Origin: a virus
DNA: 64,000 bases
IMG/VR virus record: IMGVR_UViG_3300036780_000119
Span: 1-64,000 of that record
Strand: one strand, 5' to 3'
Shown: piece after piece, positions 1-25,280 of the stretch
How the letters are laid out: the number at the start of each line of letters is the position of its first letter
How positions within the stretch are numbered: position 1 is the stretch's first letter
Position numbers and translations under genes: made by a program
The notes under the pieces: generated by a model
What the model saw: the letters and a program-made list of their open reading frames with translations, nothing else
Database searches by the model: none
Told to the model about the DNA's origin: nothing

Positions 1-783
1 GCAGCTGCTCAAAACCCCAACCGCCCAGCTTGCGGTGAACGGCGGGAGCCAGCACCCAGACAAACGCCGGGAGGGCGGCCACGGGCCGACGCTGGCCGAC
101 CAGGTGGAGTGCGAGCTCCTGCCGACACCGAACGCGACGGACAGCCAGGGTGGGCCGCGGAAGCTGCCGGAGAGACGGACGAGCGGAGGCAAGGACCACG
201 GGCCGCGGCAGGCCCGGGGCGAGGGAGGCCACTCCGACCTGGCCAGCGCGGCAATGTGGCTGGGCCAGGACCCGGCGCTGCTGCCGACCCCAGATGCGTC
301 GATGGGCACCGGGGGCCGGGTGTCGGCGACGCCGGGGGGGGAACGGGAATCGGGGGCGAAACGGTCGATCCCGCTGTCGGACGCGGTGACGCACTTCCTG
401 CCGACGCCGACGGCGATGGACTCCCATTCCTCCAGCGGCCGGAACCCAGACTGGGGCCACGGGACGACGCTGACGGACGCAGCCCAGTCAACTGGGGAAA
501 CTACGGGCCCGCCATCCGCCGGTGGGAGGCCGTCACCGGGCGGCCAGTTCCCCGGCCAACTGAGCCTGGACGAACTGGAGAACGGCTGAGCCCGCGGTTT
601 GTGGAGTGGCTGATGGGCTTGCCGGACGGCTGGGTCACCGATGTGCCGGGCCTGTCCCGCAACGCCCAGCTGAAAGCGCTCGGCAACGGCTGCGTCCCGC
701 AGCAGGTGGCGTTCGCGCTGCATGTCCTGGCCGGCCGGGTGCACGCGGAACGGGAACGTCAGACGGTACGGAGAACGGCATGA
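1..783 (+). CDS. DNA cytosine-C5 methyltransferase, C-terminal part (5'-partial)
   Basis: Frame open from base 1; ends in LSPRFVEWLMGLPDGW...QLKALGNGCVPQQ, typical of the motif IX/X end of actinophage C5 MTases. Confidence 0.8.
   Translation, partial: AAAQNPNRPACGERREPAPRQTPGGRPRADAGRPGGVRAPADTERDGQPGWAAEAAGETDERRQGPRAAAGPGRGRPLRPGQRGNVAGPGPGAAADPRCVDGHRGPGVGDAGGGTGIGGETVDPAVGRGDALPADADGDGLPFLQRPEPRLGPRDDADGRSPVNWGNYGPAIRRWEAVTGRPVPRPTEPGRTGERLSPRFVEWLMGLPDGWVTDVPGLSRNAQLKALGNGCVPQQVAFALHVLAGRVHAERERQTVRRTA
2..589 (+). CDS. Alternative-frame LLPTP-repeat polypeptide nested in the MTase gene (5'-partial)
   Basis: Second open frame with LLKTP/LLPTP/LLPTP/FLPTP repeats each followed by L-x-D/S segments; stop at 589. 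Confidence 0.65.
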   Translation, partial: QLLKTPTAQLAVNGGSQHPDKRREGGHGPTLADQVECELLPTPNATDSQGGPRKLPERRTSGGKDHGPRQARGEGGHSDLASAAMWLGQDPALLPTPDASMGTGGRVSATPGGERESGAKRSIPLSDAVTHFLPTPTAMDSHSSSGRNPDWGHGTTLTDAAQSTGETTGPPSAGGRPSPGGQFPGQLSLDELENG

Positions 784-9867: not shown

Positions 9868-9917
9868 GTGAGCCACCCATCCCTGATCCGTGTCCCAAAG
9901 CGACGGCGGTGGCTCAC
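9868..9917 (+). ncRNA. TIGR-like dual-spacer hairpin unit
   Basis: Stem gtgagccacc/ggtggctcac; CCA-tccctgatc-CGTGTCCCA-aagcgacgg-CG. Confidence 0.65.
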
Positions 9918-10389: not shown

Positions 10390-10461
10390 TGCCCGTTCGT
10401 CTAACTGGCAGGATGCCGCGTTCTGGGCGCGGTGGTCGTGGTTCGAATCCACGGCGGGCAG
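10390..10461 (+). tRNA. tRNA-Gln(CTG)
   Basis: Cloverleaf, U1-A72. Confidence 0.9.
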
Positions 10462-10464
10462 CTT

Positions 10465-10785
10465 TCCCCGGCTAAGCCAAAGTACGTCCGTTCCCCCACG
10501 GGTACTGCGCTAGCCGGGGACCCTGTTCTCCCCGGCTGGCCATTTCGCCAAACGCTTGCCCATAGTAGGCTCGCTGGCCGGGGCCTGTTCCACCTGGCTG
10601 GCTAAACACGCTTCGTGTGCCCATATTTTTAACGCCGGCCAGGGGGTTGTTTCCCGGCCGGTCATAGGGTAGTCGTGAATCCATCGGGCTAGACACCGGC
10701 CGGGGTTTCGTTTCTGATTTCTCCCTGGCCGTCCCGCCGGGTCAAGGCAAGCACCGTTACCCAATGATCCCTCGCCGGGCGGGAC
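10465..10785 (+). ncRNA. Array of five TIGR-like stem-loop dual-spacer units
   Basis: Five GC-rich stems each enclosing G(C/T)(C/T)A-N9/10-CG(N4-5)CCA-N9/10-C(G/A)C, joined by pyrimidine-rich linkers. Confidence 0.75.
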
Positions 10786-10787
10786 AG

Positions 10788-10858: not shown

Positions 10859-10866
10859 CGCAACCC

Positions 10867-11058
10867 GTGGAAGAGTGGTTCATCGTGTGGGCGAACGGTA
10901 TTCCTATGACAGTGGACGAGATGCATCGAGTCGCGTTGCTGCGGGCGGCGGGGTGTGAGTGCCCGGTGCCGCTGCTGGGTGAGCGGCCGGGGGTAGGACC
11001 ACGCTGCCGGCTTTGTAACACGCAAGCCCGATCGGCCGGGGACGACACCGGCTCCTAA
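10867..11058 (+). CDS. Small Cys-motif hypothetical protein
   Basis: CxC and CxxC; fills the gap between tRNAs. Confidence 0.5.
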   Translation: MEEWFIVWANGIPMTVDEMHRVALLRAAGCECPVPLLGERPGVGPRCRLCNTQARSAGDDTGS

Positions 11059-11064
11059 GGTCAG

Positions 11065-11147
11065 GCGCCCGTGGCGGAACGGAATACGCGCACGCTTGAG
11101 GGGCGTGTGCCCGTCAGGGCATGAGGGTTCAACTCCCTCCGGGCGCA
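11065..11147 (+). tRNA. tRNA-Leu(GAG)
   Basis: Cloverleaf with long variable arm. Confidence 0.9.
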
Positions 11148-12181: not shown

Positions 12182-12272
12182 GCGTCCGTGGCGGAATATA
12201 GAAGGTATACGCGTACGGTTCAGGTCCGTATACCCCTGTGGGGTGCTGAGAGTTCGAATCTCTCCGGGCGCA
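12182..12272 (+). tRNA. tRNA-Leu(CAG)
   Basis: Cloverleaf, enlarged D-loop, long variable arm. Confidence 0.85.
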
Positions 12273-12334: not shown

Positions 12335-12423
12335 GGAGCATTCGCCTAGTGGCCTAGGGCGCCGCACTGCTAATGCGGTAGGCGTGTTCAAGCGTCTCGC
12401 AGGTCCGAATCCTGCATGCTCCG
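12335..12423 (+). tRNA. tRNA-Ser(GCT)
   Basis: Cloverleaf, long variable arm, G73. Confidence 0.9.
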
Positions 12424-12425
12424 CT

Positions 12426-12625
12426 GTGCAGCCCCGGCCGGCCCACGAGGTGTTGCTGATTCTCATGGGACCTCCAGCTGGCTGGGGCTGCACGCAAGGG
12501 TGTTCCCCGCAGGCCATTCGCCGGACAGCGCACCTTTCTCATAGGAGGGACGCCTGCGGGGGGCCAGCGCGTGGGGGCTGGGGCCAAAGGTGAACCCCGT
12601 TCAGAGTGGATACGTCCCAGCCCCC
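12426..12625 (+). ncRNA. Three further, more divergent TIGR-like hairpin units
   Basis: Stems 12426-12493, 12505-12561 and 12573-12625, each with CCA-N9+..TCA-N9-C(G/A). Confidence 0.55.
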
Positions 12626-25032: not shown

Positions 25033-25124
25033 GCAGGGGTGGCCAGCCAGCCACAAACCATGCGGCCGGGCCCGCAGAACAGCGACCTAGGCCCGTTGAG
25101 CCACCGCTGGCTGGCCACCCCTGC
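25033..25124 (+). ncRNA. TIGR-like unit with extended loop
   Basis: 19-bp stem; AGCCA-caaaccatg-CG...CCG-ttgagccac-CGCT. Confidence 0.6.
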
Positions 25125-25127
25125 TGA

Positions 25128-25200
25128 TGGCCCGTAGCTCAGGGGACAGAGCGGCGGTTTCCTAAACCGCAGGGCGCGGGTTCGAGTCCCGCCGGGCCAG
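25128..25200 (+). tRNA. tRNA-Arg(CCT)
   Basis: Cloverleaf. Confidence 0.9.
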
Positions 25201-25202
25201 CT

Positions 25203-25280
25203 GGGGGTGGCAGGCCGGCCACCGGCAGCTCCGTGGGATCCCCCTCCCATAACACCGTTCACGGCCGGCCTGCTACCCCT
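25203..25280 (+). ncRNA. Divergent TIGR-like unit
   Basis: Long stem; GGCCA-ccggcagctc-CGTGGGA..TCCCA-taacaccgt.. Confidence 0.45.

Follow-up and report, generated by a model that had tools for sequence, protein, structure and literature searches.

What fills the 325-nt gap between the genes for tRNA-Gln(ctg) and tRNA-Thr(cgt) in this viral genome, where five tandem hairpins follow one another at positions 10465-10786, and which protein might they serve? The gap lies in the window, the 64-kb stretch of DNA that was analysed, which is the first part of a 100,466-bp IMG/VR virus contig with a G+C content of 69%. The hairpins are, with high probability, genes for stem-loop tigRNAs, the dual-spacer guides of TIGR-Tas systems, whose partner would be the only TasA of the phage and whose release would go along with tRNA processing. 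Because the start of the contig repeats its end, the genome is essentially complete, with either circular permutation or a terminal redundancy that includes a polymorphic segment. The repeat links window positions 1-335, in two blocks (1-122 and 209-335), to genome positions 100189-100466 (about 280 bases at the contig end). Its start copy carries some 86 extra bases, and the IMG/VR label for the contig is linear, against the end overlap. A search of sequencing runs found the sequence in two runs, both of soil DNA metagenomes, and the same search listed no RNA run that contains it.

The gap is part of a tRNA island with 35 tRNA genes, all on the plus strand between 9.2 and 25.4 kb (ARAGORN). 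At gathering thresholds, Rfam reports nothing but tRNAs in the window; one of these, at 12182-12272 (43.2 bits), is missing from the ARAGORN list. When the array region was compared by blastn with 50,697 phage records, tRNA-Gln was the only match, and no close relative was found for a 7.5-kb structural region of the phage. The array and the two tRNA genes that enclose it are laid out as follows, with scores from a covariance model of the units.

10390..10462, plus strand: tRNA-Gln(ctg), adjoining the 5' end of the array
10465..10520, plus strand: unit U1, core CCA-aagtacgtc-CG-ttccc-CCA-cgggtactg-CG, 35.2 bits; stem TCCCCGGCTA(A)G / CTAGCCGGGGA, with CUU at the stem base
10529..10584, plus strand: unit U2, core CCA-tttcgccaaa-CG-cttgc-CCA-tagtaggct-CG, 11-bp stem, 40.1 bits
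10590..10646, plus strand: unit U3, core CTA-aacacgctt-CG-tgtgc-CCA-tatttttaa-CG, 13-bp stem, 39.8 bits
10652..10705, plus strand: unit U4, core TCA-tagggtagt-CG-tgaat-CCA-tcgggctaga-CA, 39.8 bits
10731..10785, plus strand: unit U5, core TCA-aggcaagcac-CG-ttac-CCA-atgatccct-CG, 12-bp stem, 40.4 bits
10788..10859, plus strand: tRNA-Thr(cgt), adjoining the 3' end of the array

The fit of the array between its neighbors is tight, with U1 starting 3 nt after tRNA-Gln(ctg) and U5 ending 2 nt before tRNA-Thr(cgt). The hairpins are spaced about 61-80 nt apart and have GC-rich stems of 10-13 bp, and all five share the core (C/T)(C/T)A-N9/10-CG-N4/5-CCA-N9/10-C(G/A), so that CCA/CG boxes stand at both the edge and the loop positions of a unit. 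The original prediction had read five tandem hairpins with one shared loop register from this stretch, and the sequence is indeed as it was transcribed there, with stems that covary; its estimate of about 36 nt for the core is corrected to 33-34 nt from box to box. The conserved motifs that it had pointed out, including CG as the motif after the spacer, agree with boxes C and D as published, CCA and YG (here CG), respectively. Its claim that the two segments of 9-10 nt are all different extends well beyond the array, as all 38 of the 38 spacers in the genome are distinct. Partial complementarity between the two spacers, which had been seen in some units, is found in U1 only (5 bp), the other units being unremarkable in this respect.

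On its own, each unit forms an outer stem that closes a large loop. In four of the five, the fold beats that of shuffled sequences (z -3.3 to -5.6) or the stem is clearly visible, and folding of the whole 325 nt gives a z of -5.2. The linkers between units are U-rich and have YUGUUY in common, while a CUU motif at the stem base occurs in U1, in the solo unit U0 described below and in some units of the unrelated phage G008, but not consistently. No promoter-like site was seen on scanning the array and no credible terminator was found within it, the lone terminator-like match lying inside the spacer region of U3. A CRISPR array was considered and rejected, in agreement with the original prediction: there is no conserved direct repeat of 25-36 nt, the only constant parts being boxes of 2-3 nt, and TRF reports no tandem repeat at the array.

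Statistical support for a structured RNA comes from an alignment of 16 units, which combines the array with the units of the tas locus described below. Across its 10 stem pairs, 95.6% of the cells are paired, and nine of the ten pairs show changes on both sides. On none of five measures does any of 500 shuffles match the real alignment, and pairing falls to 23-57% when the 3' partner is slid by 1-3 columns. In the published systems, with CCA as box C and UG as box D, the G of box D forms a pair with a C of box C (PMC12045711). The innermost pair of the alignment (10-45) is made by the G of box D with the leading C of box C, and it is C-G in 14 of the 16 units, U-A in U4 and U-G in U5; in U4, with its TCA...CA boxes, the box C/D pair has switched to U-A in a compensatory manner. 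A whole-genome scan for the boxes as a regular expression plus a stem returned 14 units, all on the plus strand, as against 0-3 units, both strands taken together, in each of 20 Markov-simulated genomes.

A guide array calls for an effector, and the original prediction had suggested looking for a Tas protein elsewhere in the genome. There is one tas gene, at 93415-94446, within a locus at 93.3-94.8 kb that lies outside the window. It is on the same strand as the array and 83 kb from it in contig coordinates, or about 15 kb upstream of it across the contig junction. The encoded protein matches phrog_4285, annotated 'transposase', with an E-value of 3e-85, and as a single sequence it matches PDB 9MTY, the TasR-tigRNA-DNA structure of the TIGR-Tas paper (PMC12045711), with an E-value of 5e-7. 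A profile of 19 Tas homologues improves this to 3.6e-15 for 9MTY and gives 1.4e-6 for TasH structures. When the AlphaFold model was searched with Foldseek against the PDB, the best ten matches were without exception chains of TasR or TasH; IS621 recombinase, Nop5/Nop56/58 and Prp31 came next, with Nop5 and Prp31 at ranks 15-27.

In this model, a coiled coil and a helical domain are confidently predicted (residues 8-140 and 205-300), with helices at 8-35 and 55-84, which form the coiled coil, and at 88-139 and 207-299; no RuvC, HNH or further folded domain is present. Because a nuclease domain is absent, the phage protein is assigned to TasA, a nuclease-free Tas with a Nop fold. The Pfam Nop model (PF01798) finds no match in the genome at E <= 10 or in the Tas protein at E <= 1; the Tas family is too diverged for this model, and its kinship is seen in the fold, through the Nop5 and Prp31 matches.

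The tas locus has guide units of its own. Eleven units of the form CCA-N9-CG-N4-CCA-N9-CG, four before, two inside and five after the gene, all lie in one open frame, and the in-frame sequence upstream of Tas is unit-encoded and of low complexity. The segments of Tas that AlphaFold predicts as disordered are exactly where the embedded units are translated. A twelfth unit of the area is found in the next gene:

95371-95435 of the genome: unit whose spacers are separated by a 19-nt hairpin linker, in frame in the gene after tas

This gene belongs to the RecT family (PF03837, E 1e-19), and the unit comes directly past the RecT domain. The linker between the half-units is 5 nt in the array units as opposed to 4 nt at the tas locus. 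The covariance model nevertheless scores the array units like those of the tas locus (35-41 bits for the array and U0). With boxes, stems, variable spacers and a tas gene in the same genome all in agreement, the reading of the array as a stem-loop TIGR-type guide array stands. The hedge that it might be a relative of that type can be dropped, since the stem-loop variant has already been published and the array is a member of it. The boxes that the array units share with those of the tas locus are what points to TasA as the protein that may bind the remote units.

Further units, complete and degenerate, were found in other gaps of the tRNA island.

9868..9917, plus strand: U0, a solo unit, core CCA-tccctgatc-CG-tgtc-CCA-aagcgacgg-CG, 41 bits
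12277..12327, plus strand: U6, near-canonical, core CCA-tatgacctg-CG-gttc-CCG-catttcact-CG, 20.7 bits
12425..12561, plus strand: two degenerate unit-like hairpins, 12433-12486 and 12505-12561, 17.5 and 21.2 bits
25042..25273, plus strand: two long-stem hairpins that flank tRNA-Arg(cct), 24 and 18.7 bits

The CCA encoded with tRNA-Pro(cgg) is followed directly by the first base of U0, whose end is 5 nt before tRNA-Phe. U6 begins 4 nt after the tRNA called by Rfam alone and ends 7 nt before tRNA-Ser(gct) at 12335. The hairpins at 12425..12561 stand between two tRNA-Ser genes and retain a recognizable box C and spacer A with an irregular second half, while those at 25042..25273 begin with CCA-N9/10-CG, continue into long linkers and are possibly degenerate units. 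All units in tRNA gaps are on the tRNA strand, 0-7 nt from tRNA ends.

The same arrangement is met in other phages. Homologues of the Tas protein (992 matches) occur in cluster-A-type mycobacteriophages, Gordonia phages and actinomycete prophages, and 18 tas-positive IMG/VR records were scanned in full with the unit covariance model. Units, mostly around tas, turned up in 15 of the 18; a scan of related phages with such a model had been proposed in the original prediction, and its outcome, like that of the other proposed checks that could be run, is in favor. G008, a tas-positive record of 118,920 bp, comes from an unrelated phage with a different tRNA order and a Tas that is 44% identical. 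Its 37 tRNAs are on the minus strand, and at E<1 the model matches that strand 26 times and the other strand 3 times. The tRNA island of G008 (G008:C1:5000-15000) contains at least 14 canonical CCA-N9-CG-N4-CCA-N9-CG units and about 10 weaker ones, whose overlap with tRNAs never exceeds 1-2 nt at an end and many of which lie within 0-2 nt of a tRNA end; a 52-nt gap between tRNA-Leu and tRNA-Met is filled almost exactly by a single unit. Few units are near the tas gene of G008, which is about 36 kb from the tRNA island. In another record, G010, one unit abuts a tRNA. In the cultured phages BENtherdunthat and Rich, units are found at tas only, and in Arthrobacter phage Talia1610 the model, which was trained on GC-rich units, has no match. 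The spacers of the G008, BENtherdunthat and Rich units are unrelated.

The closest syntenic relative, G004 (130 kb), has the tRNA gene order of the window, but its gap between tRNA-Gln(ctg) and tRNA-Thr(cgt) is only 50 nt long and its tRNA island gives no match to the covariance model. Conserved spacers at a homologous locus, named by the original prediction as a finding that would speak against it, were not seen; the syntenic site lacks the array altogether. The 50-nt gap (L063:3099-3148) resembles a second tRNA-Thr-like gene reduced to its 5' part, so that a truncated tRNA would occupy the site of the array. The units of G004 form several small scattered clusters, at distances of as much as 17 kb from tas (G004:C1:106300-107400; 119.6-125 kb). 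Two more tRNA islands, those of G012 and G013, are likewise without a match, and because these and the G004 island give nothing, a tRNA cluster by itself is not enough to trigger the model. Taken together, these observations indicate that units are placed among tRNAs independently in separate phages and not in all of them, and that close relatives differ in this trait. The array is dispensable, since the closest syntenic relative is without it.

Variation is also seen within the soil populations. In contigs from the second soil run (X2), with a depth of 2-2.5, position 10580 is joined to 10642, and the 61 nt that are missing correspond to exactly one guide unit. In the same contigs, 18 other bases replace the 205-nt stretch from tRNA-Thr to tRNA-Leu (window 10859-11065). 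These contigs suggest strain-level variation in the tRNA island, and the junction of 10580 and 10642 is weak evidence for copy-number variation of the units.

Possible targets were sought with the two half-sites in both orders (B+rcA and rcA+B). The best match in the phage's own genome has 2 mismatches. At <= 3 mismatches, over both orders, seven self-targets were counted as compared with 2.9 +/- 1.8 for shuffled spacers, two of the seven overlapping the array itself, and near-matches in the own genome are not in excess of those of shuffled spacers. Over 1.09 Mb of related phage loci, four matches with 2 mismatches were obtained, which is about the number expected by chance, and the U1 and T12 matches there lie in unrelated genes. 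With 2 mismatches, the T12 spacers (B+rcA) match a small gene (MDELIAFLNARL...) around its start codon in two related contigs (L003:11544, L004:7242); the gene is about 2 kb downstream of tas, and the match is statistically at chance level. For U3 only, both orders were also searched in 401 genomes from the taxonomic class to which G019 belongs, the MAG of Streptosporangiaceae with the closest genomic Tas relative, and gave one match with 1 mismatch, the level of the control. A clue for target hunting may come from base composition, as the spacers of the tRNA-island units are much more AT-rich than the phage, with a G+C content of 47% against 61% at the tas locus and 69% in the genome.

The outcome of these searches is one of several points in favor of an alternative in which units of the tas locus have spread into the gaps in a MITE-like manner or by recombination, and the hairpins, as decayed or passenger copies of them, are transcribed with the tRNAs and no longer act as guides. 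No targets were found, several of the tRNA-gap hairpins are clearly degenerate (12433-12561, 25042-25273), the array is missing from the syntenic site in G004, and the low-depth contig of the second soil sample is without one 61-nt unit. Decay is difficult to reconcile, however, with the state of the five array units and U0, which keep all four boxes and have compensatory changes in their stems, including the box C/D pair, and which score as high as the units of the tas locus. It would also be odd for junk to be distributed as in G008, where the tRNA island holds most of the units and few are near tas. Loss of function is therefore considered unlikely for the hairpins.

A second alternative, which is even less probable, sees in the hairpins structural spacers of a general kind within the tRNA operon, with no connection to Tas. 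They would then serve as terminators or insulators, as RNase E/III sites or as signals for processing. Phage tRNA clusters commonly have hairpins between their tRNAs, and those of the array do abut tRNA ends and have U-rich linkers. Yet a processing hairpin needs neither loop boxes in a fixed register nor two variable 9-nt segments, the identical grammar recurs around and inside tas, and no such hairpins are found in the islands of G004, G012 and G013. A role in termination is further opposed by the lack of a T tract after the stems. Least probable of all is a function at the level of DNA, as cruciforms, protein-binding inverted repeats or recombination sites, for although the stems are inverted repeats of 10-13 bp, their sequences vary while complementarity is kept, as in a folded single strand and not in a sequence-specific DNA site, and the strand bias is strict.

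If the hairpins are tigRNA genes, their position offers a plausible route of maturation. The anatomy would have the array co-transcribed with the tRNA genes. Its two ends would then be freed by enzymes that act on the tRNAs: the array transcript would get its 5' end from 3' processing of tRNA-Gln(ctg), 3 nt before U1, and the RNase P cut at the 5' end of tRNA-Thr(cgt), 2 nt after U5, would free the 3' end of U5. Between the units, a host RNase may cut the U-rich YUGUUY linkers. By analogy with the published systems, a TasA dimer would assemble on the two box C/D pairs of each hairpin, and spacers A and B would each base-pair with a 9-nt stretch of DNA, the two stretches being adjacent and on opposite strands. 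The target would be bound without being cut and would probably be repressed or blocked; such an outcome of binding or repression is expected because TasA has no nuclease.

Guides that are remote from tas and punctuated by tRNAs suggest release by RNase P and 3' tRNA processing. Guides are found 0-7 nt from tRNAs in two unrelated tRNA islands, which points to these activities as ready-made releasing enzymes. If this holds true, tRNA-guide polycistrons represent a maturation route for stem-loop tigRNAs. Slightly favored over its converse is the broader proposal that large tRNA-rich actinophages keep part of their TIGR guides, and in G008 most of them, as natural tRNA-tigRNA polycistrons, the guides being packed base to base among the tRNA genes and released by RNase P and 3'-end processing independently of transcription of the tas locus. 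The system itself is not new; its remote, tRNA-punctuated organization appears to be. A search of article full texts found no description of natural tRNA-interleaved TIGR units, the only hits being an engineered yeast design and mentions in reference lists. Since guides can sit tens of kilobases from tas, catalogues centered on tas may miss part of the repertoire.

Among known systems, the closest is stem-loop TIGR-TasA. Stem-loop arrays were described by Faure et al. (2025; PMC12045711), and a recent preprint reports 2,559 of them around tas loci (Xu et al., 2026; bioRxiv 10.64898/2026.09.09.750476). The latter also describes in-frame intragenic units in disordered regions, stem-loop Tas proteins without the Y/H processing loop, CUU as a motif at the base of stems, and TasA acting as a repressor (10.64898/2026.09.09.750476). 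Examples include PlTasA, from a Peromyscus leucopus gut contig, and BlTasA of Bifidobacterium longum (PMC12045711; 10.64898/2026.09.09.750476). The phage system resembles these in its tandem hairpins with variable palindromic stems, each with two spacers of 8-12 nt between box C and box D, in its nuclease-free Nop-domain Tas, in the units placed upstream, downstream and, at disordered segments, in frame inside tas, and in its phage host. It differs from them in that the array is not at tas but in a tRNA cluster, with ends 2-3 nt from the tRNAs, in that single units fill other tRNA gaps, and in that box D is CG and not UG. Adjacency to tas is a trait of the published loci and not a mechanistic requirement, and because TIGRFinder was applied to the surroundings of tas, remote arrays of this kind are not expected in its reports.

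More distant are the dual-repeat systems TIGR-TasR and TIGR-TasH (TaTasR, 9MTY; SpTasH, PDB 9W04). Shared with these are a CCA box C whose first C pairs with box D, two spacers of about 9 nt, a core of 33-36 nt and a homologous protein, with the profile E-values (3.6e-15, 1.4e-6) and best fold matches given above. The conserved edge and loop repeats of those systems are replaced here by long stems, and neither RuvC nor HNH is present. Orphan or remote CRISPR arrays offer a parallel in organization, being guide arrays far from the effector gene that are used in trans, although the RNA architecture, the protein family and the mode of targeting (two 9-nt spacers, opposite strands, no PAM) are different. 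The nearest precedents for the proposed mode of release are the plant dicistronic tRNA-snoRNA genes (Kruszka et al., 2003, as listed in ref. 66 of PMC12045711) and engineered tigRNA-tRNA arrays, which work in yeast (bioRxiv 10.64898/2026.07.30.739390). In both, as proposed here, box C/D-type guides lie beside tRNAs and tRNA enzymes release them from a common precursor; those examples are eukaryotic or man-made, while the present one is natural and belongs to a bacteriophage, and its processing is a prediction. Nature would already employ the tRNA-guide design that engineers have built for multiplexing.
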